DNA of 20,477 nt from a virus (lineage: Duplodnaviria; Heunggongvirae; Uroviricota; Caudoviricetes): IMG/VR virus record IMGVR_UViG_2703718852_000002, positions 1 to 20,477 of that record. One strand, 5' to 3'. The notes under the pieces were generated by a model. It searched no databases, was not told the origin of the DNA, and saw nothing but the letters and a program-made list of their open reading frames with translations. Position 1 is the first letter of the stretch; every line of letters starts with the position of its first letter. This document shows, one piece after another, positions 1 through 15,734 of the stretch. Position numbers and translations under genes: made by a program.

Positions 1-1053
1 TTACGGGGTAATGCCAACCGCTGCCGCCACTTTGTCGCCACTTGGCAGCGTTGCCAGAGGATTGAAACGGAGCGCCGTTTCCAGATGATCCGGTGCCAGA
101 TGTGCGTAACGCATAGTCATTTTTATATCGTGGTGTCCGAGAATTTTTTGTAAGGCCAGAATGTTTCCACCCGACATCATGAAGTGCGCCGCAAACGTAT
201 GGCGCAGAACGTGTGTGAGTTGACCGCGAGGGAGCACGATAGACGTTTTTTCCATCACGGATAAAAATTGAAAATAGCAGTCTGTGAAGAAATTGAACCC
301 ATCAAGCGCCATGATCTCTTCGTAAAGCTCTTTACTGATAGGGATGCTTCTGTTTTTCTTCCCCTTCGTTCTTACAAAGGTAATTCGGTATTTGGTCACC
401 TGTGAACGAGTAAGATTTACGGCTTCTCGCCAGCGTGCGCCTGTGCTTAAGCATATCTTAACTACCAGTGCCAGAATTGGGTCCTGACGTTTGCAATCAG
501 CCAGTAATTCAACAATCTGCTCATGGGTAAGCCATGCCATCTCTTTTTCTGCGATGGTGAATTTTCGCATGTTCTCCAGTGGGTTCGGATACGACCATTC
601 GCCCAGGCGGGATAGTTCGCTAAAAACACTACTTAGATAGCTTTGCTCCAGGTTAATGGTGACCGGGCTTGCTCCTTTCTTCCATTTCTCGCTGAAGTAG
701 ATCTCACCTGTCAGGCGTTTATCTCGATAGTGGGCAAACATTTTAGAGGTTAGATCAGTTGCAAGGGGATTGCCCAGAGCGTCAACCATCAGCAGCAATT
801 TGTCATAGACATGCTGCCCAGCAGTCAGTGATTTACCATGTAGTTTGAACCATAGCTCAACCACGTCTTTCAGTGTTCGACGATCCACTGATTCACCTAG
901 CCAGGGCTTTGCTTCGGTTTCTTCCATCGTGTGACGCTCAAAAGCCAGTGCTTCGCCTTTGGTGGCGAATTGTTTACGCACACGACGCCCACTACGTCCG
1001 GCGGGGTAACATTCGCAAAGCCATTTTCCTGTGGTGAGTTTTCGTACAGCCAT
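1..1053 (-). CDS. int: Tyrosine integrase, P2/186 family
   Basis: Translation from MAVRKLTTGKW... is integrase-like, with a C-terminal catalytic region (LRHTFAAHF ... HHDIKMTMRYAHL). GGAGGG RBS lies 7 nt upstream of the ATG at 1051-1053. The ORF-track start at 1131 is judged an upstream in-frame extension. Stop codon is at 1-3. Confidence 0.9.
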   Translation of the reverse strand: MAVRKLTTGKWLCECYPAGRSGRRVRKQFATKGEALAFERHTMEETEAKPWLGESVDRRTLKDVVELWFKLHGKSLTAGQHVYDKLLLMVDALGNPLATDLTSKMFAHYRDKRLTGEIYFSEKWKKGASPVTINLEQSYLSSVFSELSRLGEWSYPNPLENMRKFTIAEKEMAWLTHEQIVELLADCKRQDPILALVVKICLSTGARWREAVNLTRSQVTKYRITFVRTKGKKNRSIPISKELYEEIMALDGFNFFTDCYFQFLSVMEKTSIVLPRGQLTHVLRHTFAAHFMMSGGNILALQKILGHHDIKMTMRYAHLAPDHLETALRFNPLATLPSGDKVAAAVGITP

Positions 1054-1241
1054 AAAAAATGCCCTCCAATAGAGAGCATTTTTACTGTATGTATAACCAG
1101 TGTCAATGTATGAAATCCTGCGACCATACATCTCACTGAAGCCATAATGAAGTAGGCTATTCTTTTTGCTATGTGATCATGTAACTTTTGCGGTTAACCT
1201 GTGGCTCATTTTTATTTTAGGCGCAGATATAAAAGCAAAAG

Positions 1242-1448: not shown

Positions 1449-2018
1449 CTATTTAACATACTTGACTGTTAAACTTATAATTTTACCAATTATTTCAATG
1501 TCTTCTATCTTACATTCAAAGGCTCTGTTTCCACCCTCGACGAAGATTCTTCCACCGGGTAAACGAGTAATGTCACGGATCGTTATTTCGCCATCAATAC
1601 TTATTACCCATTTACCATCACGTATATCATCAAATTCCTTATCACAAATAAATTCAGAATTATTATCTGTGATTACAAAAAGATTCTTGAATGCCGACGG
1701 TAGAAATTCTCTATCGAAAATATAAAAACCGTCTTCACACAAGGCCCCATCAGATAATACATATTTAGCAACTTCCATAGTATTTGTATTACCTGAAGTT
1801 TGCTTTGAACCATGCCCGGTTGTGAGCCAATTAAGCGAGGTGCCTGTTTCAAGGGCGCACTGGATTACCCATTCTGCTGGGAATGAGTCACGCATGTAGC
1901 GTGTGGCGAGTGTACTTTTAGAGATTCCTAAATGATCGCACAACGCCTGTCGAGTCTTGAATCCATAAGCTTCTACCATGCGCTCTATGGCGCCTCGTCC
2001 GCCTTTCTCCAAATTCAT
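1449..2018 (-). CDS. cI: CI-type immunity repressor, phage 186 CI-like (about 189 aa)
   Basis: Size and position match 186 CI (192 aa), transcribed divergently from apl/cII and upstream of int. GGAG RBS lies 5 nt before the ATG at 2016-2018; the GTG at 2022-2024 is an alternative start. Confidence 0.8.
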   Translation of the reverse strand: MNLEKGGRGAIERMVEAYGFKTRQALCDHLGISKSTLATRYMRDSFPAEWVIQCALETGTSLNWLTTGHGSKQTSGNTNTMEVAKYVLSDGALCEDGFYIFDREFLPSAFKNLFVITDNNSEFICDKEFDDIRDGKWVISIDGEITIRDITRLPGGRIFVEGGNRAFECKIEDIEIIGKIISLTVKYVK

Positions 2019-2042
2019 GGTCACTCCAAGTGAACTTTTATC

Positions 2043-3721: not shown

Positions 3722-3948
3722 TGGCTGATGCAATGGATCTCGTACAGCAGCGCGTTGAAGAAGAACGCCAACGCCATATCCGTGCTGCCCGTGCCAAAAC
3801 GCCGGGCGTGTCCCGCGTGCTTTGCATTGAGTGTGAAGCGCCAATTCCGCCAGCACGCCGCCGTGCCATTCCGGGTGTGCAGCTTTGCATTACCTGTCAG
3901 GAAATCGCAGAGCTGAAAGGCAAACATTACAACGGAGGTGCTGTATGA
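3721..3948 (+). CDS. TraR/DksA-family C4 zinc-finger protein (75 aa)
   Basis: Two CxxC pairs (CIEC ... CITC) spaced as in TraR/DksA-type zinc fingers. Translationally coupled to the upstream gene and to dam (ATGA overlap at 3945-3948). Confidence 0.7.
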   Translation: MADAMDLVQQRVEEERQRHIRAARAKTPGVSRVLCIECEAPIPPARRRAIPGVQLCITCQEIAELKGKHYNGGAV

Positions 3949-4802
3949 GCACCATCCTGAAATGGGCGGGAAATAAAACTGCCATAATGTCCGAACTGAA
4001 AAAACATCTTCCTGCTGGCCCGCGACTGGTTGAACCTTTCGCGGGTTCCTGTGCTGTGATGATGGAGACGGATTATCCCAGCTATCTGGTTGCGGATATT
4101 AATCCTGATTTAATCAACCTCTATAAAAAGGTTGCCGCTGATTGTGAATCGTTTATATCTCGCGCCAGAGTTTTATTTGAGATCGCAAACAGGGAAGTGG
4201 CTTATTACAACATAAGGCAGGAGTTTAATTACTCAACTGAAATTACTGATTTCATGAAAGCGGTATATTTCCTGTATCTCAATCGTCACGGTTACCGTGG
4301 TTTATGTCGCTATAACAAGAGCGGGCATTTCAACATTCCCTACGGTAATTATAAAAATCCGTATTTCCCTGAAAAAGAAATTCGCGCATTTGCAGAAAAG
4401 GCCCAGCGAGCAACGTTTATCTGCGCCAGCTTTGATGAAACGCTGGCGATGTTGAAGGCGGGGGATGTGGTGTATTGCGATCCGCCGTATGACGGTACGT
4501 TTTCCGGCTATCACACTGACGGCTTCACTGAAGATGACCAGTATCACCTGGCATCTGTTCTTGAACATCGGTCATCAGAAGGACATCCGGTCATTGTTTC
4601 TAACAGTGACACATCCCTGATCCGTTCGCTGTATCGCAATTTTACTCACCACTACATCAAGGCAAAACGCAGCATCGGTGTGGCAGCTGGCGAGGGTAAA
4701 TCAGCAACAGAAATCATTGCTGTTTCCGGGCCGCGCTGCTGGGTGGGATTTGATTATTCGCGTGGCGTGGATAGTTCTGCCGTGTACGGAGTACGTGCAT
4801 GA
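3945..4802 (+). CDS. DNA adenine (N6) methyltransferase, Dam family, orphan
   Basis: N-terminus [12 protein letters not shown], AdoMet motif PFAGSCAV and catalytic DPPY (YCDPPYDG). GGAGG RBS upstream of ATG at 3945. No adjacent restriction endonuclease gene. Confidence 0.85.
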
Positions 4803-7213
4803 GTCATGCCGATATGAACAACTGCTGCGGCTTTAACGAAGCTGCCGCATCGTTCTCATGGAACAGCTCGAAAAAGGCCATTAACCCTTATCTGGACCCG
4901 GTGGAAGTTGCGCCGGTTTCTACGCTTTCAAACCTGATCACTCTGTACGCTGCCGATAACGAGCAGGAACAGCTGCGCCGTGAGGCGCTGAGTGATCAGG
5001 TCTGGGAGCGTTATTTCTTTAATGAATCCCGTGATCCTGTCCAGCGCGAAATGGAACAGGATAAGCTCATTAGTCGGGCAAAGCTGGCGCATGAGCAGCA
5101 GCGTTTTAATCCGGATATGGTCATTCTGGCGGACGTCAACGCCCAGCCTTCCCATATCAGCAAGCCGCTGATGCAACGTATTGAATACTTCAGCAGCCTG
5201 GGCAGGCCAAAGGCTTATTCCCGCTATTTACGTGAGACGATTAAGCCATGTCTGGAACGACTGGAGCATGTACGCGACAGTCAGCTATCTGCATCTTTTC
5301 GCTTTATGGCAAGCCATGAAGGGCTGGACGGCCTGCTGATCCTGCCTGAAATGAGTCAGTTTCAGGTGAAACGCCTGTCCACCCTGGTAGCTGCGCATAT
5401 GAGTATGTGCCTTGATGCCGCTTGTGGCGATTTGTATGCCACCGATGACGTTAAGCCAGAAGAAATCCGCAATACATGGGAAAGGGTGGCAGCGGAAACC
5501 CTGCGTCTGGATGTCATCCCGCCTGCGTTTGAGCAACTCCGTCGGAAAAGAAACCGCCGTAAACCCGTGCCCTATGAACTCATTCCGGGTTCGCTGGCGC
5601 GTATGTTGTGCGCCGACTGGTGGTATCGGAAATTATGGAAGATGCGTTGCGAATGGCGGGAAGAGCAGTTGCGTGCTGTCTGCCTTGTCAGCAAAAAAGC
5701 ATCTCCCTATGTCAGCTATGAAGCCGTGTTGCATAAACGTGAGCAGCGCCGTAAGTCGCTGGAGTTTTTCCGTTCTCATGAACTGGTGAACGAAGACGGC
5801 GACACGCTGGACATGGAGGATGTGGTAAACGCCAGCAGCAGCAACCCTGCGCATCGCCGCAATGAGATGATGGCCTGTGTTAAAGGTCTGGAGCTTATCG
5901 CGGAAATGCGCGGTGACTGCGCCGTTTTCTACACCATCACCTGTCCGTCACGTTTCCATTCCACGCTAAATAACGGCAGGCCCAACCCGACCTGGACAAA
6001 TGCGACGGTAAGACAAAGCAGCGATTATCTGGTCGGTATGTTTGCTGCATTTCGTAAGGCGATGCACAAAGCCGGGTTGCGCTGGTATGGCGTGCGGGTG
6101 GCTGAGCCGCATCACGACGGCACAGTTCACTGGCACCTGTTGTGTTTCATGCGCAAAAAAGACCGCCGCGCCATTACAGCATTGTTGCGTAAGTTTGCTA
6201 TCCGTGAAGACCGCGAGGAGCTGGGCAATAACACGGGGCCGCGCTTTAAGTCTGAGCTGATTAACCCGCGCAAAGGAACGCCGACAAGCTACATAGCGAA
6301 ATACATCAGTAAGAACATTGACGGGCGTGGTCTGGCTGGCGAGATCAGCAAGGAAACGGGTAAATCTCTGCGTGATAACGCTGAATACGTGAATGCCTGG
6401 GCGTCTTTGCATCGTGTTCAGCAATTCCGCTTCTTTGGCATTCCGGGGCGTCAGGCTTACCGTGAACTGCGATTGCTGGCTGGTCAGGCGGCAAGGCAAA
6501 AGGGGGACAAAAAAGCAGGTGCGCCGGTACTGGATAACCCGCGCCTTGATGCCATCCTGGCTGCTGCTGATGCTGGTTGTTTTGCCACCTACATCATGAA
6601 GCAGGGCGGCGTACTGGTTCCCCGTAAATATCACCTCATCAGAACCGCTTATGAAATCAACGAAGAGCCGACCGCCTATGGCGATCACGGCATTCGTATT
6701 TATGGCATCTGGTCACCCATTGCAGAGGGCAAGATCTGCACTCATGCAGTGAAGTGGAAAATGGTTCGTAAAGCCGTTGACGTTCAGGAGGCGGCAGCCG
6801 ACCAGGGCGCTTGCGCCCCTTGGACTCGTGGCAATAACTGTCCCCTTGCTGAAAATTTGAACCAACAGGAGAAAGATAAATCAGCTGATGGGGACCCCAG
6901 AACGGACATTACCAGCATGGATGACAAGGAGTTGCACGATTACCTGCACAGTATGAGCAAAAAAGAGCGCCGGGAACTGGCAGCAAGGTTACGCCTGGTG
7001 AAACCGAAACGGCGTAAAGACTACAAACAGCGAATTACAGACCATCAGCGACTGCAGCTCGTGTATGAGCTGAAGTCCAGAGGATTTGATGGCAGCGAGA
7101 AAGAGGTCGATTTACTCCTTCGCGGAGGCAGTATTCCGTCAGGAGCAGGCCTGCGTATCTTCTATCGGAACCAGCGTTTGCAGGAAGATGATCAGTGGCG
7201 GAACCTGTATTAA
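4799..7213 (+). CDS. Replication initiation protein, P2 gpA-like rolling-circle endonuclease (804 aa)
   Basis: HUH-type motif ([15 protein letters not shown]) and paired-tyrosine motif (YIAKYISK) typical of RCR initiators. Size and position match P2/186 gene A. ATG overlaps the dam stop (ATGA at 4799-4802). Confidence 0.9.
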
Positions 7214-7366: not shown

Positions 7367-7555
7367 ATGCAGGACTATTTTTTGGAGTCTTTGAAGCTCC
7401 AGCGCATTGATTTTTTTCTTAAGCTTGTAGCGGCTAGTGAGTGTAGTGATGAAGAGAAGGGGCTGGCTCTGCAGTGGGTTTCTGAATTGACTGATGAACT
7501 CATGGCAAAAATCAGAACCCACGAATACAACCGCTCAATGGATGTCATCAGCTGA
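7367..7555 (+). CDS. Hypothetical 62-aa protein, first gene of the SOS-controlled operon (possible antirepressor N-terminal module)
   Basis: ATG at 7367 with a strong AGGAGG RBS, about 45 nt downstream of the LexA box. The ORF-track start at 7265 would include the operator and is rejected. Confidence 0.5.
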   Translation: MQDYFLESLKLQRIDFFLKLVAASECSDEEKGLALQWVSELTDELMAKIRTHEYNRSMDVIS

Positions 7556-7565
7556 GGTGACTTTT

Positions 7566-7799
7566 ATGCGCATTGAAATAATGATCGATAAAGAGCAGAA
7601 GATTAGCCAGTCTACCCTGGACGCCCTTGAATCCGAGCTTTACCGCAATCTGCGCCCCCTGTATCCCAAAACGGTAATTCGCATTCGCAAAGGTAGCTCT
7701 AACGGTGTGGAACTAACCGGACTGCAACTGGACGAAGAAAGAAAACAAGTGATGAAAATTATGCAGAAGGTGTGGGAAGACGACAGCTGGCTGCATTAA
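7566..7799 (+). CDS. DinI-family protein (77 aa), as in the C-terminal part of 186 Tum
   Basis: MRIEIMIDKEQ... aligns by eye with E. coli DinI (MRIEVTIAK...; conserved W-E/D-D..W near the C-terminus). AGGTGA RBS upstream. Sits under the LexA-box promoter. Confidence 0.8.
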   Translation: MRIEIMIDKEQKISQSTLDALESELYRNLRPLYPKTVIRIRKGSSNGVELTGLQLDEERKQVMKIMQKVWEDDSWLH

Positions 7800-7933
7800 G
7801 AAACGTTGCTGGCGTCTGAACTTGCTTCTGGCGTCAGCAAGGTTGAACAACGAGCCCTTGCGAGGCGTTAGCTCTGTAGTGCATGTCTATGCCGCATGAG
7901 ATCGCATGATCGTTTGAGGATCGTTTTTGCTAA

Positions 7934-7958
7934 GGCCCGCCAGAACTGGCGGGCTTTT
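7934..7958 (+). terminator. Rho-independent terminator closing the early/SOS region
   Basis: GC-rich stem ggcccgccag / ctggcgggc with a short loop, followed by TTTT at 7955-7958. Confidence 0.6.
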
Positions 7959-8196
7959 GCGTAGATCATGCAGGTGCATGAAAACCACTACATAAAGCGG
8001 GCAGGCGTGGCGGGGATACGAGCGCGCGCTGATAGGGTAATCGTCAAAACAGGCATCAGCTAGGTTGAGTTGTAGCGGTGCTTAAGTTTGCTCGTTGTTT
8101 GATAGAGCTTAATGTATGTAATTGCCTACAGCTGTGGTTATCTATTAACATGTAAGGATAAGGTCACTTGCTCGCTGCCATTAGAAGAGGAACTGG

Positions 8197-8667
8197 ATGT
8201 CTATCGAGGAAAAATTTTTTAGTGATATCGATTTAAAAGATCCGTTTTTTAACAGCCTAAGAGCTGATTATGAAGGATTTGATGTTTGGTTTCTCTCAAA
8301 AGGTAAAAATAAGGCGTTTGTATCACGTAATGAATTAGGTGAAATCGATGGTTTTCTCTATTTGAAAATAGAAGATGAAGAGTTGAGTGATATGACTCCA
8401 ACGTTTCCAAAGATGAAGCGAGTAAAGCTTGGCACATTTAAAATCGATGCTCATGGAACCAAACTTGGAGAGCGTTTTATTAGAATTATGTTTCAATTTG
8501 CTATGAGAAACAAACTAAAAGAAGTATATGTTACTATATTTGATAAGCATTCAGGATTAATTCGCTTATTAACTAAATATGGTTTTGTTTTAAAGGCGAG
8601 GAAAAATCTTTCTACGATTAATGGGCAAGAAGGTGTATACTTTAAAAACTTGGTATGGAAGGAGTAA
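8197..8667 (+). CDS. Cargo protein 1 (156 aa), unknown function; weak GNAT-like resemblance in the C-terminal half
   Basis: ATG at 8197 with AGAAGAGG RBS. AT-rich codon usage. Segment KLGERFIRIMFQFAMRNKLKEVYVTIFDKHSGLIRLLTKYGFVL is reminiscent of an acetyltransferase core but does not fit the canonical motif cleanly. Confidence 0.6.
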   Translation: MSIEEKFFSDIDLKDPFFNSLRADYEGFDVWFLSKGKNKAFVSRNELGEIDGFLYLKIEDEELSDMTPTFPKMKRVKLGTFKIDAHGTKLGERFIRIMFQFAMRNKLKEVYVTIFDKHSGLIRLLTKYGFVLKARKNLSTINGQEGVYFKNLVWKE

Positions 8668-8670
8668 AAA

Positions 8671-9252
8671 ATGAGCTATGCTAATTATCCCTTAGTCAAA
8701 TTGCAGGGGAGAAATTATTTATTAAGTATTTATCCTGCATGGCATACACGTCTTTTCCCTGAGTCAAAACTCCACAATGAGAGTGCTGGTATCATCGCTG
8801 ATATATCACATACCAACAGTATTGAAAAAGTATACTTAACAAAAATGCATGGGGTAGCCAGCCTAAAGCCTGGAGATAATTTGCTTATTTATCGTACTTC
8901 AGATGGACAAGGTCCAGCTCGGTTTAGATCTGTTGCAACTTCAGTGTGTGTGGTTCAGGAAATTAAAGATATTCACGATTTCTTAACTTATGAGGAATTT
9001 AAGAATTACTGTGAACCTTATAGCGTTTTTGATGAAGATGAGTTACAGCTTCTATATATGAAAAAAAATTATCCGATAATTATACGGTTTACTTATAATT
9101 TCCCTTTGGAAAAAAGAGTTATTCGTGATGAAATCATGAATATTACAGGTTATACCAATAGTGATTATTGGGGTTTTTTACCACTAACTGATTCAGCATT
9201 TAAGCAGATTGTCTTACAGGGAGGTGTTGATGAAAGTTTTATTATCGATTAA
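8671..9252 (+). CDS. Cargo protein 2 (193 aa), unknown function
   Basis: ATG at 8671, 3 nt after the stop of cargo 1, with GGAAGGAG RBS. Overlaps the start of cargo 3. No recognisable motif. Confidence 0.6.
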   Translation: MSYANYPLVKLQGRNYLLSIYPAWHTRLFPESKLHNESAGIIADISHTNSIEKVYLTKMHGVASLKPGDNLLIYRTSDGQGPARFRSVATSVCVVQEIKDIHDFLTYEEFKNYCEPYSVFDEDELQLLYMKKNYPIIIRFTYNFPLEKRVIRDEIMNITGYTNSDYWGFLPLTDSAFKQIVLQGGVDESFIID

Positions 9253-9601
9253 GCCAGAGTATGCAGAGAGTATACTTTCTGGTAAAAAAAAATATGAGTT
9301 TCGGAAAAATATTTTTAGAAATAAAAATGTTGATACGATAGTTATTTACGCAACGATGCCGGTTGGCAAAGTAATAGGTGAATTTAAAGTAGGAGATATT
9401 CTTGCTCTATCCCCTTCAGAATTGTGGGATAAAACGAAAGCTCATGCAGGAATTACACATTCTTTTTTTAAAGATTATTTCCACCAAAGAGAAAAGGCTT
9501 TTGCTATTTCCATCAAAAGCCCTAAAAGATATAAATTCCCTGTCGACTTAAATGAGTTGATTCCCGGCGGCGTCGCCCCACAGTCTTATCGTTATTTATA
9601 A
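9230..9601 (+). CDS. Cargo protein 3: ASCH-domain (PUA-like) protein (123 aa)
   Basis: ATG at 9230 preceded by GGAGGTG RBS. N-terminal MKVLLSIKPEYAESILSGKKKYEFRK carries the ASCH signature GxKxxExR seen in E. coli YqfB (GRKTITIR). Confidence 0.65.
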   Translation: MKVLLSIKPEYAESILSGKKKYEFRKNIFRNKNVDTIVIYATMPVGKVIGEFKVGDILALSPSELWDKTKAHAGITHSFFKDYFHQREKAFAISIKSPKRYKFPVDLNELIPGGVAPQSYRYL

Positions 9602-10141
9602 TGTTGTCTGGGCATGTTTCTTAACCATGCCCAGTTTTTCTAGGGCAATAGATAAATCGTTTGTTGTTGGGGATTCTAAGATAATTAATGGTACATTGAT
9701 TTTATTTGTAACATATTTTGCGTTTTCTCTTTCAGCTTCCATCAGCTTATTTAAATCATAAGTAATATCACTCCCATCTCGTTTCATTATTCGTTCTCTA
9801 ATTGTATCGGGAGACTCCTCAACTAAAATTACTCCATCTAGCCCCATTTCCTCAAATACTTCTTGCTTGAGAACTTCAATATCTCCATTTTTATTTATTA
9901 AGGTAAAATGACCATCCAATAAAATATTGGATACCTTTAACTTTAATGCATTAAGTGCCGTAAGTAATATTGATTGGTTTTTATCAGGTGTGGCCGTTAA
10001 CTTACTGTTATCAAATTTAATATTAGAATTATTTTTTATAAGTTCGCTTGCGCTTACATGAGTTACCCCGAAATCATCTTTTGCAAATGAACACAAGTAA
10101 CCTTTGCCTACACCATGAACACCTGCTATGAAAATTAACAT
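9596..10141 (-). CDS. Cargo protein 4: small P-loop NTPase / nucleotide-kinase-like protein (181 aa)
   Basis: Walker A motif at the N-terminus (IFIAGVHGVGKGYL) and Walker B-like hhhhDG (ILLDGHF). ATG at 10139-10141 with GGAGG RBS. Convergent with cargo 3; the 3' ends overlap by 6 nt. Confidence 0.7.
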   Translation of the reverse strand: MLIFIAGVHGVGKGYLCSFAKDDFGVTHVSASELIKNNSNIKFDNSKLTATPDKNQSILLTALNALKLKVSNILLDGHFTLINKNGDIEVLKQEVFEEMGLDGVILVEESPDTIRERIMKRDGSDITYDLNKLMEAERENAKYVTNKINVPLIILESPTTNDLSIALEKLGMVKKHAQTTL

Positions 10142-10206
10142 AGTATTACCTCCGTTTATTTATTTATGTTAGAATGTTATAGCCTTAGCATAGTAGAGGA
10201 TAGAGC

Positions 10207-10584
10207 ATGAAGTTTCAAGCTATATCGATTTTGACTCCAGCGGTAGAAAATATTATAAATGGTTCTAAATCTATCGAAATACGGTCGTGGTATCCTGAAA
10301 CGATACCATTAAAAAACGTCATTCTTGTTCAGAATGATAAATATCTTAAAAATCAAAGCGATATAGATCATGGGGTGGCTATGGCTATTGTCGATTTTGT
10401 TTCAGTTAGAAATTGGTCATATGAGGATTACTTAAAACAAAACCAAGAAACAACTCTTAATAAGCCTTGGTCTCCAGGTTATTATGTGTGGGAAATTAAA
10501 AATGTTAGAATTTTAAAAAAATCTATTCCTTGTGTGGCGAGGAAAGGTATTTATACAATAGATTTAAATATGGATTATATATAA
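10207..10584 (+). CDS. Cargo protein 5: second ASCH-domain (PUA-like) protein (125 aa)
   Basis: ATG at 10207 with GAGGA RBS. Motif NGSKSIEIRSW fits the ASCH GxKxxExR signature. Divergent from cargo 4. Confidence 0.65.
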   Translation: MKFQAISILTPAVENIINGSKSIEIRSWYPETIPLKNVILVQNDKYLKNQSDIDHGVAMAIVDFVSVRNWSYEDYLKQNQETTLNKPWSPGYYVWEIKNVRILKKSIPCVARKGIYTIDLNMDYI

Positions 10585-10595
10585 GGTATTGTGAG

Positions 10596-11387
10596 ATGTG
10601 TGGTGCCATTCTTCGAAATATTAAGCGTTATGCCATTATTTATTCACTGTTGTTTTTGGCTTTTATTTTAATGCTGATAGTGTTTGTTAGCTATGTTTGT
10701 AAATTTGGAGTGTATTCATGGAGTGATTCCGTAGAGAAATGGGGACAGTTTGGCGATTATATTGGTGGTGTACTGAATCCTGCTCTGGCCTTTATCTCTA
10801 TCATGCTTGTTTGTTTCACACTATATTCTACATCTAGGCAGTCATCTATTCAGTCATTCGAGTCTGTGTTATTTGAGTTACTAAGATTTCATAAAGATAA
10901 CTTATCAGAAATTAAAACAACGTATTCAGATGGAAAAGTGTATGTAGGACGGGAGGCTCTTTCATTATACATTACCGAAGTGAAGTTTAACCTACTTAAT
11001 ATTGTGGATGATTCACTTCCTTTGGATGAAAGGTTAGAGCTTTCAGTTAATATGGTTTATCTGGAAGGTGACAATTTTGCGAATGTGGGACATTATTTCA
11101 GGAATATTTACCATATTTTTAAACATATCAATGACTCTAACTATTTGACTGAGAAAGAAAAAACCAAGTATGCGAAATTAGTTAGAGCACAAATATCTTC
11201 TATAGAATCTGGCGCGATGCTATTAAATGGTTTTTCATCGGTAGGAAAGCCTGCCAAGAAATTTATTGAAAAATATTCTCTCCTTCAGGGGTTTAGTTTA
11301 AGTAAGGAATTCAAGCAGCAATTACATGATTTAGGTGCCTTAAAATTATACGATGACGTTGCTTATGAGGATAAAAAAGGGCATTAA
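10596..11387 (+). CDS. Cargo protein 6: membrane protein with two N-terminal TM helices and a cytoplasmic C-terminal domain (263 aa); candidate effector
   Basis: ATG at 10596, 12 nt after the cargo 5 stop. Hydrophobic segments IIYSLLFLAFILMLIVFVSYV and LNPALAFISIMLVCFTLYS. The ORF-track start at 10530 is TTG inside cargo 5 and is rejected. Confidence 0.6.
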   Translation: MCGAILRNIKRYAIIYSLLFLAFILMLIVFVSYVCKFGVYSWSDSVEKWGQFGDYIGGVLNPALAFISIMLVCFTLYSTSRQSSIQSFESVLFELLRFHKDNLSEIKTTYSDGKVYVGREALSLYITEVKFNLLNIVDDSLPLDERLELSVNMVYLEGDNFANVGHYFRNIYHIFKHINDSNYLTEKEKTKYAKLVRAQISSIESGAMLLNGFSSVGKPAKKFIEKYSLLQGFSLSKEFKQQLHDLGALKLYDDVAYEDKKGH

Positions 11388-12230
11388 ATGCCCTTATCTT
11401 GGTCAAGGATGTAGTCATTAAATGACACAATATTTTGATTTATCCAGGTGTTTAGCTCAACTAGTCTTTTCTGCAAAGGAACCAACTCATTTCTGACAAA
11501 AACCTTCGCGGCTTTTTCCACATCCCCAAACCCTCCAACATTATTAGGCATAATCCCCATCATTTGCGGCGGCACGCGGTGCGCAGCCATCATGTCATCA
11601 CGGCTCACGTTCTTGATATTCAGAAACTCATCCTTCGCCGCAACTTCTGACAATGGGATAATCTGAAGCCCGTCCTTTTTGCCGTTAGGCGAGTACATAA
11701 ACAGGTTGCGGAAGTTGCCCGGACCTTTGGCGCTTTTCATCGCATTGCGGAGGTTGTTCACATCTTCCTGGTTCTGCGCGGCATCGGTCATGTACATGAT
11801 GAAGCCTGCATGACTGCCGTTAATGTAATACTTCCGGCGGAACAGCGTGGCGGACTCGTTGAGCAGGGCTGACGGAATGGCAGAAAGATAACCTGGCAGG
11901 CCGTAGATCTCCTGGTTGATGTCCGGTTCCATCAGATGAAAAATGCTGCCTTTCGTGAACTGATACGGCTGGGTTGTCATACCGTATTGCACAAACCAGT
12001 AGGTATCCAGGTCTAACCCGCGTCGGGTATATTTTGCCAGAGCAGGCTCAAGGGCGATAACTTCACCGAAGCGGTTCGTGCGTTTCTCCAGGTAGGCGTT
12101 ACCAAATACCAGATAGTCCTGCACAAAACGTGAAAAAGCCTGCTGGCTGAGCAGCGGGTGAGGGATGTAGGTACTGGTCAGAATGTTGCATTTTACTGCA
12201 ATCGGTGACCGGAAGCAGAGCCGGTAATGG
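11384..12230 (-). pseudogene. Q: Portal protein gene remnant (P2 gpQ-like), 5' part deleted
   Basis: The C-terminal ~270 aa of the 317-aa ORF read as a P2-family portal (...AAHRVPPQMMGIMPNNVGGFG...FNDYILDQDKGI). The N-terminal ~30 aa of the ORF are antisense to the J remnant and not portal-like. Upstream boundary is approximate. Confidence 0.6.
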
Positions 12231-12439
12231 CAGCGGCAAAAGCCAGTCTGCAGAAGTACATTGCCAGCCAGACGAGGCTTGGTCGGGATATTCGCCGTAG
12301 CGCCATCTTTGCTGCTCTGCATGTTGAGGGTGTTCAACGTGTGGAACTGGCTTCTCCGCTGGCGGATGTGGTCCTGAACAAAACACAGGCGGCATCATGT
12401 ACGCAGTGGAGCGTAACCAACGGAGGAACGGATGAATAG
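12227..12439 (+). pseudogene. J: Baseplate protein J gene remnant (3' end only)
   Basis: A 70-aa ORF ending 5 nt into gene I, where the gpJ C-terminus would sit. No full-length J upstream; abuts the portal remnant. Confidence 0.45.
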
Positions 12440-13037
12440 TCTGCTGCCACCGGGTTCAACTTCACTGGAGCGCCGACTGGCGCAAACCTGTAGCGGGATT
12501 TCTGATTTGCAGGTGCCGCTGCGTGACTTGTGGAATCCGGCTACCTGTCCGGTCAGCTTCCTGCCTTATCTCGCCTGGGCGTTCTCTGTGGATCGCTGGG
12601 ACGAGGGCTGGACAGAAAGCGTCAAACGCCAGGTAGTGAAGGATGCTTTTTATATTCATCAGCATAAAGGAACCACCAGTGCCGTGCGGCGGGTGGTGGA
12701 ACCGTTCGGATTCCTGATCCGCATTATTGAGTGGTGGCAGACCGGAGAAACACCGGGCACGTTTCGCCTGGATATCGGCGTGCAGGACCAGGGCATCACT
12801 GAAGATACCTATCTGGAACTTGAGCGACTGATAAGCGATGCCAAACCATGTAGCCGCCACATGATCGGCATGTCCATCAATCTGCAGACCAGCGGCCCGC
12901 ATTGGGTGGGAGCCGCCAGCTATCTTGGCGAAGAAATCACGATCTATCCGTATATCAACGAAACGATTATTTCCGGTGGCACCGCGCATGAAGGCGGGGC
13001 GGTCCATGTTATTGACACAATGAGAGTGAATCCATGA
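12432..13037 (+). CDS. I: Baseplate/tail protein gpI (201 aa)
   Basis: LRDLWNPATCPVSFLPYLAWAFSVDRWDEGW...GTFRLDIGV matches P2 gpI as recalled. GGAGGA RBS. Stop overlaps the H start. Confidence 0.8.
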   Translation: MNSLLPPGSTSLERRLAQTCSGISDLQVPLRDLWNPATCPVSFLPYLAWAFSVDRWDEGWTESVKRQVVKDAFYIHQHKGTTSAVRRVVEPFGFLIRIIEWWQTGETPGTFRLDIGVQDQGITEDTYLELERLISDAKPCSRHMIGMSINLQTSGPHWVGAASYLGEEITIYPYINETIISGGTAHEGGAVHVIDTMRVNP

Positions 13038-14480
13038 GCACAAAATTTTATACCCTGCTGACGGATATTGGCGCGGCGAAACTTGCCAGCGCCGCCGCGC
13101 TCGGTGTGCCGCTAAAAATTACCCATATGGCGGTGGGCGATGGCGGTGGAGTATTGCCAACGCCGGACGCAAAGCAGACGGCACTGGTAAATGAGAAACG
13201 CCGGGCTGCGCTGAATATGCTTTATATCGACCCGCAGAACAGCAGCCAGATTATTGCCGAACAGGTGATCCCTGAAAACGAGGGCGGTTGGTGGATACGT
13301 GAAGTGGGCTTGTTTGATGAGTCCGGGGCATTGATTGCCGTGGGCAACTGCCCGGAAAGCTATAAGCCGCAACTGGCTGAAGGTAGCGGGCGCACTCAGA
13401 CCGTGCGCATGGTGCTGATTACCAGCAGCACGGACAATATCACCCTGAAAATCGACCCTGCTGTAGTGCTGGCAACCCGCAAGTATGTGGATGACAAGGC
13501 ACTGGAGCTGAAGGTGTACGCGGATGATCAGATGGCAAAACATCTTGCCGCACCGGACCCGCATTCACAGTACGCGCCAAAAGCCAGCCCGACATTTACC
13601 GGAACCCCCAAAGCGCCAACGCCAGCGGCGGGGAATAATACCACGCAGGTTGCGACCACTGCGTTTGTACAGGCGGCACTGACGGCCCTTATTAATGGTG
13701 CGCCAGCCACGCTGGACACGCTGAAAGAAATAGCCGCAGCCATTAACAATGATCCGAATTTCAGTACCACCATTAACAATGCGCTGGCACTAAAAGCACC
13801 GTTGTCGAGTCCGGCACTCACCGGAACGCCAACAGCCCCCACGGCGGCGCAGTCGGTCAACAATACACAGATTGCCACTACGGCTTTTGTGAAATCGGCG
13901 ATTGCAGGAATGGTGGGTTCTGCACCTGCTGCACTGGATACACTGAACGAACTGGCGGCGGCACTGGGGAATGATCCGAACTTTGCCACGACAATGCTTA
14001 ATGCGCTGGCAGGTAAACAACCGCTGGACAATACGCTTACCAATTTGAGTGGAAAGGATGTGGCTGGTCTTCTCGCATACCTTCAATTGGGAGAAGCGGC
14101 AAAACGGGATGTCGGAACCGGTAATAATCAACTCCCGGACATGTCCGCATTTGGTATGTCGCGAAACGGACAAACTGCCTGGGATATTCTCCCAAATGGT
14201 ATGATTCGACAGGCTGGCACTGTGACACTGACACCAGTTGGTAACTTCAACGAAATTGTTCTTGGTGGAGTGACGTACTACACCCATTACTACAGGGTTA
14301 ATTTCCCCAGACAATTCCCAAATGCACAAATAGCAACGCTGGCAACACTAGCGAGCTCAGAGTTTTCGAAACAGACAACAATGGCCGGAAAATCACTGGC
14401 AACGCATCGCGATACTGATTCTGGCACTGACGTATCAAGAACGCGATTCACTGTGGCGTACGGCAGCAGTAACTCGAACC
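13034..14480 (+). pseudogene. H: Tail fiber gene H, N-terminal ~480 codons, 3' part deleted and fused to the T remnant
   Basis: MSTKFYTLLTDIGAAKLASAAALG...MAVGDGGG...ESYKPQLAEGSGR...LDTLNELAAALGNDPNFATTMLNALAGKQP is P2 gpH-like. After about 14470 the frame reads low-complexity Cys/Arg-rich text, and no G/tail-fiber-assembly gene follows. Confidence 0.7.
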
Positions 14481-14489
14481 AGCAGCGCG

Positions 14490-15734
14490 TTGTCCTGGCT
14501 GGCTGGCGCACCACTGGCACTGCTGCGACGCGGGCTTGCTTCATCGGGCAACGCCGCAGGTTTACTTACTGCGCCGTTGTCGTCTTTGCGCCGCACGGCA
14601 TCACTGACGGGAAATGTCCTGAAAACTGTAGCAGGTGCGCCGGTTGCACTTTTGCGGTCTGGATTATCCGGTTTACGTGCTGTTGCTGTGATGTTTATGA
14701 ATCCTCTGGCGGTACTGCGCGGTGGACTGGCCGCCGCAGGCACGGTGCTGCGAGTACTGGCATCTGGTCCACTGGCGATGCTGCGCGTTGCCCTGTATGC
14801 CATATCTGGTCTGTTAGGTGCTCTGCTCAGTCCGATAGGTCTTGTGGTTACTGCACTGGCGGGCGTGGCGCTGGTTGTCTGGAAATACTGGCAACCCATC
14901 ACCGCATTTCTCGGTGGCGTGGTGGAAGGATTCAAAGCGGCGGCAGGTCCCATCAGTGCAGCGTTCGAACCGCTTAAGCCCGTGTTCCAGTGGATTGGCG
15001 ACAAAGTGCAGGCGCTGTGGGGCTGGTTTACTGATCTGCTGACGCCCGTTAAGTCGACCTCTGCCGAACTGCAGAGCGCAGCGGCAATGGGGCGGCGATT
15101 CGGGGAGGCACTGGCGGAAGGGCTGAATATGGTCATGCATCCGCTGGACTCCCTGAAATCCGGCGTTTCCTGGTTGCTGGAGAAGCTCGGCATTGTCAGT
15201 AAAGAGGCCGCAAAGGCAAAACTGCCGGAAAGCGTGACGCGTCAGCAACCTGCGACGGTGAATGCAGACGGTAAAGTGATGATGCCATCGGGTGGTTTTC
15301 CATCATGGGGATATGGCTTTGCGGGGATGTATGACAGCGGCGGGTATATCCCGCGCGGGCAGTTTGGCATCGTCGGTGAAAACGGGCCGGAAATTGTTAA
15401 CGGCCCGGCAAATGTGACCAGCCGGAGAAATACAGCTGCACTGGCTGCCGTTGTTGCCGGAATGATGGGCGTTGCTGCCGCGCCAGCAGAGCTTCCACCG
15501 TTGCACCCTTTGGCACTTCCCGCGAAAGGTGGAGAAGCAATTGTGAGTCGCGCAGCCACTGTGCCGCTCGTTCAACGGATTGAGGCACCGACGCAGATCA
15601 TCATTCAGACGCAGCCAGGACAAAGTGCGCAGGATATTGCGCGGGAGGTGGCACGCCAGCTTGATGAACGTGAACGCAGGCTGAAGGCAAAAGCCAGGAG
15701 TAACTACAGCGATCAGGGGGGATACGACGCATGA
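14490..15734 (+). pseudogene. T: Tail tape-measure gene T, C-terminal ~414 codons only
   Basis: Ala/Gly/Leu-rich tape-measure-like sequence ending directly before gpU (ATGA overlap at 15731-15734). The ORF-track start at 14490 is TTG; this frame is open back to a stop at 14349-14351. The N-terminal half of T and the genes for sheath, tube, E and G are absent. Confidence 0.65.

Follow-up and report, generated by a model that had tools for sequence, protein, structure and literature searches.

A split GNAT-EVE gene coupled to an ASCH gene in the cargo island of a P2-like prophage

The window analyzed here is the whole 20,477-nt stretch of a Caudoviricetes virus record (IMG/VR IMGVR_UViG_2703718852_000002, positions 1 to 20,477), and it is a P2-like prophage. 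Three tightly packed open reading frames (ORFs), ORF1, ORF2 and ORF3, are the first genes of a cargo island of about 3.4 kb (about 8000-11400) that lies between a DinI-like gene and the portal gene. A preliminary description of this DNA, made from the letters alone, had proposed that these ORFs are linked by a 3-nt gap and a 23-nt overlap, and both junctions were confirmed at those positions (Table 1). We are highly confident that the locus is a split-gene variant of a known cassette, GNAT-EVE + ASCH (+ AAA_17), which PADLOC lists as candidate PDC-M11 and which is carried here as cargo in a P2-like prophage hotspot.

Table 1. Features of the cassette, its neighbors and the surrounding prophage (positions of the window)
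Feature	Positions	Strand	Description
ORF1	8197-8667	+	156 aa, ATG start; GNAT acetyltransferase half, N-terminal part of PDC-M11A
ORF1/ORF2 junction	8665-8670	+	in-frame TAA (8665-8667) and one AAA codon (8668-8670)
ORF2	8671-9252	+	193 aa, ATG start; EVE/ASCH-like PUA-fold domain, C-terminal half of PDC-M11A
ORF2/ORF3 overlap	9230-9252	+	23 nt
ORF3	9230-9601	+	123 aa, ATG start; ASCH protein, PDC-M11B, GKER motif subgroup
AAA_17 P-loop kinase-like gene	9596-10141	-	Pfam AAA_17, E = 3e-18; convergent with ORF3, 6-nt overlap
Second ASCH gene	10207-10584	+	Pfam ASCH, E = 0.0017; carries GxKxxExR (GSKSIEIR)
putAbiC membrane protein gene	10596-11387	+	RefSeq start 10596; Pfam putAbiC, E = 1e-18
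Integrase gene	1-1131	-	extends to the first position of the window
Repressor-like gene	1449-2024	-	
Dam-like DNA adenine methyltransferase gene	3885-4802		PHROG 56, E = 8e-124
Replication endonuclease gene gpA	4799-7213		PHROG 91, E = 2e-288
DinI-like gene	7494-7799		
Terminator-like GC hairpin and TTTT	7935-7958	+	GCCCGCC-AGAACT-GGCGGGC-TTTT, sequence inspected directly; 3' of the DinI-like gene
Portal gene fragment	11384-12337	-	PHROG 68, E = 2e-145; tail genes beyond

Each of the three ORFs is preceded, 5-6 nt 5' of its start codon, by a Shine-Dalgarno-like purine run (GAGGA at 8187-8191, AAGGAG at 8659-8664 and GGGAGG at 9219-9224). A program-made list of ORFs begins ORF3 at TTG 9209, whereas alignments of homologues place residue 1 at ATG 9230. 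This ATG and its Shine-Dalgarno sequence sit within conserved C-terminal codons of ORF2 (G-G-V-D-E-S-F-I-I-D). A consensus promoter scan found no sigma-70-like promoter upstream of ORF1.

We investigated how frequently this arrangement recurs. When one genome per species was scanned, 231 loci were confirmed, of which 80 were kept, and counts out of 80 refer to these. An ASCH homologue accompanies the ORF1+ORF2 homologue in all 80, across many phyla. The genes are co-conserved, which the preliminary description had made a condition of its proposal, and the linkage far exceeds chance. At 76 of the 80 loci the ASCH start codon falls within the 3'-terminal part of the gene before it, with an overlap of 23 nt in 65 and 29 nt in 11, and 74 of these 76 overlapping genes start with ATG or GTG. 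Across loci, the ASCH ATG is made from conserved (D/N)-E codons near the EVE C-terminus, with the Shine-Dalgarno sequence provided by the G-G codons before them. The overlap is seen in Proteobacteria, Bacillota, Bacteroidota, Acidobacteriota, Cyanobacteria, Chloroflexota and others. These data bear out the earlier proposal of co-translation: translation of ORF3 is coupled to that of ORF2 by way of a start codon embedded in the end of the latter.

ORF1 and ORF2 lie in one frame because the distance between their starts (8671 - 8197) is a multiple of three. One PADLOC profile, PDC-M11A (PDLC04419, 357 positions), spans them both: ORF1 matches profile positions 11-160 (E = 1e-58) and ORF2 matches positions 166-357 (E = 6e-69). 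When the joined ORF1+ORF2 sequence was used as a query and the best 120 of 1953 homologues were considered, 119 were single proteins of about 347-384 aa, most of them 349-351 aa, with query coverage of 98-100%. The sole short protein among the 120 was ORF2 itself, at 99% identity. Source records often name the fused homologues "GNAT family N-acetyltransferase". ORF1 and ORF2 align to these fused proteins, and the stop falls in a variable linker between two conserved blocks. These alignments show that a GNAT-EVE gene that is normally fused has been divided into ORF1 and ORF2, with the fission point at the junction between them. The view of the three ORFs as three separate components is therefore replaced by one of a divided gene and its ASCH partner.

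The same division occurs elsewhere. Among the 80 kept loci, five others carry a stop at the equivalent linker position, in Kosakonia (L001, 76% identity to the window protein), Providencia (L004, 72%), Erwinia (L006, 71%), Pantoea (L002, 64%) and an Enterobacteriaceae genome (L003, 59%). Six junction types are found: TAA-AAA-ATG in the window and TAA-TTT-ATG, TAA-ATG, TGA-ATG, TGA-ATT-GTG and TGA-TTT-ATG. All six keep a purine-rich Shine-Dalgarno-like run and a restart codon, with a spacer of 0 or 1 codon. When the split lineages were compared with one another, the proportion of synonymous differences (pS) was 0.7-0.97 and thus saturated, while the proportion of nonsynonymous differences (pN) was 0.14-0.32 in ORF1, ORF2 and ORF3 alike. 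Because pN is low while pS is saturated, purifying selection has acted on both halves ever since they separated. In a neighbor-joining tree, the window and L001, L004, L006 and L002 form one split clade beside fused relatives, and L003 clusters with fused E. coli and Cedecea proteins. The placement of L003 suggests that the gene divided once, early, and was re-fused in some lineages later, or else that it divided twice independently. These data indicate that the split is old and has been maintained in an Enterobacterales lineage. Because nearly all homologues are fused and the split is conserved in that lineage, the locus is a fission variant within the same family.

A stop in frame is also what a point mutation would leave. 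If the stop were an inactivating nonsense mutation, the operon would be a decaying pseudogene, which would suit a defective prophage with a truncated portal gene and the further frameshift in ORF2, at a run of eight A, that is present in one strain. The remaining evidence essentially excludes this reading. A fresh nonsense pseudogene does not account for a split at the same linker in six lineages of 59-76% identity, with differing stops and spacers and with Shine-Dalgarno and start retained, or for strong purifying selection on both halves. Each half also has a PHROG family of its own (phrog_13728, 144 aa, and phrog_30943, 193 aa), separate from that of the fused form (phrog_6345, 352 aa). The exact ORF1, ORF2 and ORF3 proteins are each present on at least 1000 contigs (these counts are lower bounds) in E. 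coli, Klebsiella, Salmonella and E. albertii. E. coli carriers of the locus are all at least 99.8% identical, and RefSeq annotates both halves as intact coding sequences. The frame is kept at all six junctions, as it would be if the stop were read through in a programmed manner, but the stop contexts vary (TAA-A, TAA-T, TGA-A and TGA-T) and every junction has its own Shine-Dalgarno sequence and start. We therefore treat stop-restart as sufficient and read-through as possible.

Two further loci have internal stops of other kinds. A Granulicella metagenome-assembled genome (L017, about 1214-2236) carries an in-frame TAG of independent origin in the linker region, and no restart codon lies nearby; another locus (L066, about 6001-7044) has a stop at codon 71. 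The operon in the window contains two homopolymers, a run of eight A (9061-9068) in ORF2 and a run of nine A (9284-9292) over the ASCH motif codons K19-K21. In E. coli LD91-1 the former is seven A long, and ORF2 is truncated at 135 aa. The shorter run may be an inactivating slip-strand event or an error in sequencing the homopolymer.

The acetyltransferase-like character first suggested for ORF1 is upheld. Besides its match to PDC-M11A, its family profile matches GNAT structures by sequence (1tiq, E = 5e-5), and Pfam Acetyltransf_1 matches 14 of 18 homologues. The AlphaFold model of ORF1 has a predicted local distance difference test score (pLDDT) of 93.6. ORF1 thus supplies the GNAT-like acetyltransferase domain of a GNAT-EVE + ASCH operon. 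Its invariant segments HGTKLGERF and YGF probably correspond to GNAT motifs A and B.

The middle protein had been described as having no recognizable motif. A fold search and a published census instead assign it an EVE-like PUA fold. The structure model of ORF2 (pLDDT 82) matched the Zymomonas ASCH protein 5guq (score 12.7), the EVE proteins 2gbs (11.7), 1wmm (11.3) and 2ar1 (11.0), human THYN1 bound to 5-methylcytosine (5mC) DNA (5j3e, 10.3), the 5-hydroxymethylcytosine (5hmC)/5mC-dependent endonuclease VcaM4I (9.3), YTH domains (about 9) and McrB N-terminal readers (7.3-8.5). These matches place ORF2 among PUA-superfamily reader-type domains. In addition, the EVE-domain census of Bell et al. 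2020 includes a Bacillus cereus segment with which ORF2 residues 58-193 share 46% identity (E = 5e-40). This match indicates that ORF2 belongs to their GNAT-EVE class, with an EVE domain C-terminal to the GNAT domain. From the modeled fold, we presume that ORF2 is a reader of nucleic acid or of modified bases. Residues 33-49 are highly conserved and are modeled at low confidence; we suspect that they form an interface or a substrate loop. We also considered sequence paralogy between ORF2 and its ASCH partner and rejected it, with hhalign giving only a weak collinear match (E = 0.006, probability 6%).

ORF3 is an ASCH protein, as had been read from its motif SGKKKYEFRK (residues 17-26, 9278-9307). 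It matches Pfam ASCH PF04266 (E = 5e-9) and PADLOC PDC-M11B (E = 2e-49), and its closest solved relative is ZmASCH of Zymomonas mobilis (PDB 5GUS/5GUQ, E = 6e-12). Across 81 ASCH partner proteins, the GxKxxExR octapeptide is conserved at G18 in 95% and at K20, E23 and R25 in 100%. These four residues of ORF3 fit the general ASCH octapeptide GxKxx[E/T]xR, which holds a catalytic Lys and Glu/Thr, and ORF3 is presumably a hydrolase ("eraser") or an antidote. Searches with Pfam, PADLOC and PHROG profiles found no nuclease domain in ORF1-ORF3 or the kinase-like gene. Likewise, profile searches of ORF2, ORF3 and the neighboring genes found no DNA-binding antitoxin domain of the ribbon-helix-helix (RHH) or helix-turn-helix (HTH) type.

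Profile searches on all three proteins therefore returned the acetyltransferase and ASCH assignments that had been expected, and they also showed that the cassette had already been catalogued, as PDC-M11 and as the GNAT-EVE/ASCH/AAA_17 operon of Iyer et al. 2013 and Bell et al. 2020. Bell, Wolf and Koonin described (PIN)-GNAT-EVE operons, "almost all" with ASCH and "often" with an AAA_17 ATPase, and reported that the forms without PIN are common in beta- and gamma-proteobacterial prophages (PMC7641849). The cassette in the window has no PIN domain. It resembles these published operons in its profiles, its ASCH partner, its AAA_17 accessory gene and its location in a gamma-proteobacterial prophage. 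It differs from them in that published GNAT-EVE is one polypeptide, whereas here GNAT and EVE are kept separate by a conserved stop-restart. We found no mention in the accessible literature of the conserved fission or of the near-universal ASCH overlap, and where PDC-M11 appears its name is merely listed as a candidate.

The position of the cassette agrees with this identity. It is flanked by gpA upstream and the portal gene downstream, and the split loci L001-L004 and L006 likewise lie between a gpA-like gene and portal/terminase genes. The variable gpA-gpQ locus of P2-like phages is a defense hotspot (Rousset et al. 2022; PMC9122126; also PMC9519451); in P2 itself, old and tin occupy it, and many validated defense systems have been found at the site (PMC9122126; PMC9519451). 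The sequenced, functional P2-like Salmonella phage SopEPhi carries a fused 369-aa version with a 125-aa ASCH protein in the same hotspot. In the window, the hairpin that follows the DinI-like gene closes the conserved early region of the phage and forms the 5' boundary of the cargo. GC content falls there from ~0.47 to ~0.33, and the island as a whole stands at ~0.33 against 0.45-0.55 around it. The hairpin is absent from the output of a pattern scan because it is followed by only four T.

What might the cassette do? Bell et al. 2020 predicted a toxin-antitoxin role, possibly through aminoacyl-tRNA acetylation, in which ASCH would bind DNA or serve as a regulator; by their account no module had yet been characterized, and the authors cite Iyer et al. 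2013 for a proposed acetylation of DNA bases (PMC7641849). Work on ASCH proteins adds a possible chemistry. E. coli YqfB is an ASCH N4-acetylcytidine (ac4C) amidohydrolase (PMC6972931). In a 2026 preprint, 19 ASCH proteins removed tRNA ac4C in vitro, and TthASCH, EOLA1 and TRIP4 each required the Lys and Glu of the GKER octapeptide (10.64898/2026.02.27.708502). These ac4C erasers and ZmASCH have the ASCH fold in common with ORF3. YqfB is a housekeeping salvage enzyme of the GK[T/S]R type, whereas ORF3 is of the GKER type and is a predicted enzyme. The removal of N4-acetylcytidine from RNA by ASCH proteins turns what was a guess from domains into a concrete writer/eraser hypothesis. The pairing of an acyl-transfer enzyme with an ASCH domain, as first suggested for this locus, fits both the published predictions and this biochemistry, and we infer the mechanism itself from them.

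We propose that the cassette is a writer/reader/eraser module serving toxin-antidote or abortive-infection defense. The EVE-like subunit would pick a nucleic acid, possibly one with a modified base, and the GNAT subunit would use acetyl-CoA to acetylate an amino group there. Our best guess for the target is the N4 of cytosine, in RNA or DNA; the amino group of an aminoacyl-tRNA is an alternative. The mark would harm replication or translation, and in uninfected cells the ASCH protein would reverse or limit it, or otherwise neutralize the writer. ORF3, the proposed eraser, retains the Lys/Glu dyad without which other GKER-type ASCH proteins do not remove N4-acetylcytidine. Coupled translation at a fixed ratio would balance writer against eraser, and phage infection would tip that balance. 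In the split lineage, writer and reader would assemble non-covalently, and the AAA_17 kinase-like protein would be a non-essential accessory. Taken as a whole, the split-cassette identity together with this mechanism is our best explanation of the locus, held at a little under even confidence, and the mechanism by itself is more tentative still.

DarT/DarG serves as a working analogy only. There, too, the gene of a modifying transferase lies immediately upstream of that of a co-expressed small hydrolase domain of a kind able to remove such a mark, and both systems reside on mobile elements and in defense loci. However, DarT/DarG uses ADP-ribosylation and a macrodomain whereas the window has GNAT acetylation and ASCH; folds and chemistry are unrelated, and toxicity and reversal carry over only by analogy. 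Modification-dependent restriction systems with EVE/PUA readers (VcaM4I, an EVE-HNH protein, and McrB) have a nuclease as effector, whereas the reader in the window is normally joined to an acetyltransferase.

Several observations weigh against the proposed mechanism. A fold search with the GNAT half returned generic GNATs only (N-terminal acetyltransferases and RimI), with no pointer to a nucleic-acid substrate. The Pfam EVE model is non-significant on ORF2 and the fused homologues (1 of 18, at E = 0.14), and the reader role therefore rests on fold similarity and the classification of Bell et al. In the 2026 preprint, ZmASCH had weak ac4C activity: it failed to act on free ac4C, and its overexpression in E. 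coli gave no significant fall in tRNA ac4C. It had earlier been reported as a single-stranded RNA ribonuclease; the same protein did act on tRNA in vitro (10.64898/2026.02.27.708502). Bell et al. 2020 favor ASCH as a DNA-binding regulator over an eraser and also raise phage counter-defense (PMC7641849). The cassette is rare, being present in 8 of 5426 complete E. coli genomes. Finally, our literature searches found no experimental work on PDC-M11, GNAT-EVE or ASCH in defense, and no report of anti-phage activity, toxicity, nucleic-acid acetylation or deacetylation by this ASCH clade.

ZmASCH also calls for care as a relative. It matches the PDC-M11B profile (E = 5e-25), and we considered whether it belongs to the same operon type (L082, 3825-5447). 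This was rejected, for the 375-aa protein encoded upstream is not GNAT-EVE: it has no Pfam or PADLOC match and an hhalign probability of 0.2% against GNAT-EVE. The ZmASCH gene lacks a GNAT-EVE neighbor, which indicates that this ASCH clade also exists outside the cassette and that ZmASCH biochemistry can be borrowed only with caution.

The readings of function overlap, and we judged the probability of each separately; the judgments are not meant to sum to one. A narrower form of the proposed mechanism is an immune system whose effector is nucleobase acetylation. The EVE domain would detect invading nucleic acid, possibly hypermodified, GNAT would write a blocking N4-acetylcytosine-like mark that stops replication or translation, and ASCH would erase it from self. 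The conserved split and the 23-nt overlap would then control the stoichiometry of a writer-reader-eraser circuit. We regard this specific form as possible and on balance unlikely. Somewhat less probable again is that GNAT acetylates charged tRNAs in the manner of TacT, AtaT and ItaT, with EVE picking tRNAs by their modified bases and ASCH acting as a regulator or binder. GNAT toxins of the TacT type, which acetylate aminoacyl-tRNA, are well established. TacAT, AtaRT, KacAT and ItaRT resemble the window in that a mobile element encodes a small GNAT and, in tight coupling with it, a partner gene. This scenario was proposed by Bell et al. 2020, tRNA binding is common in PUA-like domains (PMC7641849), and tRNA is bound and acted on by GKER-type ASCH proteins (10.64898/2026.02.27.708502). 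In contrast, TacAT-type systems have an RHH/HTH antitoxin, while the window has an ASCH partner downstream and an extra EVE-like domain; toxins of the TacAT/AtaRT type were not among the top fold matches of ORF1.

The cassette could also benefit the phage, by acetylating its own or host nucleic acid to evade restriction or immunity or by acting as a prophage-stabilizing addiction module. Bell et al. 2020 suggest that GNAT-EVE could shield phages from host restriction-modification, and the DNA-base acetylation they cite from Iyer et al. 2013 would suit this (PMC7641849). The functional temperate phage SopEPhi carries the cassette, and it persists in the decayed prophage of the window, as an addiction module might. 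On the other hand, exclusion and defense genes expressed in the lysogen, such as old and tin, are a known feature of the gpA-gpQ locus of P2-like phages, as are its many validated systems. Many of the 80 loci have no obvious prophage neighbors among the recurrent gene families, and an eraser beside the writer is odd for a purely protective mark. We consider a benefit to the phage improbable, and the writer/reader/eraser defense module remains the reading we prefer.

If the writer/reader/eraser hypothesis is true, nucleic-acid acetylation joins the chemistries of bacterial immunity. GNAT-EVE/ASCH cassettes occur in many bacterial phyla and in phage defense hotspots. The natural split parts the acetyltransferase from the reader and so offers a genetic handle on the role of each, in a cassette from E. 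coli and P2-like phages, for which phage panels and tools exist. If the hypothesis is not true, the locus is still a clean case of stable gene fission with stop-restart coupling.

The genes that follow ORF3 raise the question of how far the unit extends. By sequence, the AAA_17 product matches adenylate and UMP/CMP kinases in the PDB (E = 4e-6). Such a gene adjoins the pair in 18-19 of 80 loci (about 24%), on either side and on either strand. The second ASCH gene and the putAbiC gene are kept with the cassette in Kosakonia, Providencia and Erwinia, and a Bacteroides locus (L071, 7420-8760) has a single 446-aa ORF, putAbiC fused to AAA_17, directly 3' of the GNAT-EVE/ASCH pair. Shared travel and this fusion hint at a functional link between the putAbiC, second ASCH and AAA_17 neighbors. 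A larger unit might comprise GNAT, EVE, ASCH, AAA_17, the second ASCH and putAbiC, with putAbiC as the killing effector; this concerns the extent of the functional unit and not its chemistry. The Bacteroides fusion prompted the idea, the six genes stand in the same order in Kosakonia, Providencia and Erwinia, and in Pantoea putAbiC comes immediately after ASCH. However, only about 6 of 81 loci have putAbiC beside the pair and about a quarter have AAA_17 there, and the SopEPhi pair has different neighbors, as expected of independent systems stacked in one hotspot. We doubt that the unit is this large. The second ASCH and putAbiC genes may be functionally linked to the cassette, or they may be an independent second system in the hotspot.

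In SopEPhi (L081, 5043-6591), the pair is followed by phosphoribosyltransferase (PRTase)-like and DprA/SLOG-like genes, which probably form a two-gene system of their own at this hotspot. The AAA_17 gene of the Kosakonia locus (7431-7927) is seemingly frameshifted.

The window prophage is defective. Its portal ORF (window 11384-12440) lacks about the first 70 residues and abuts baseplate/tail-fiber genes, from which it follows that the terminase, capsid and lysis genes are missing; in strain LD91-1 the portal gene is full-length. The C-terminal third of a 647-aa tail-fiber ORF (13034-15734 region) is seemingly out of frame and overlaps a tape-measure-like ORF. In the early region, the Dam-like methyltransferase gene lies directly 5' of gpA, and the PUA-type readers are encoded 3 kb downstream.

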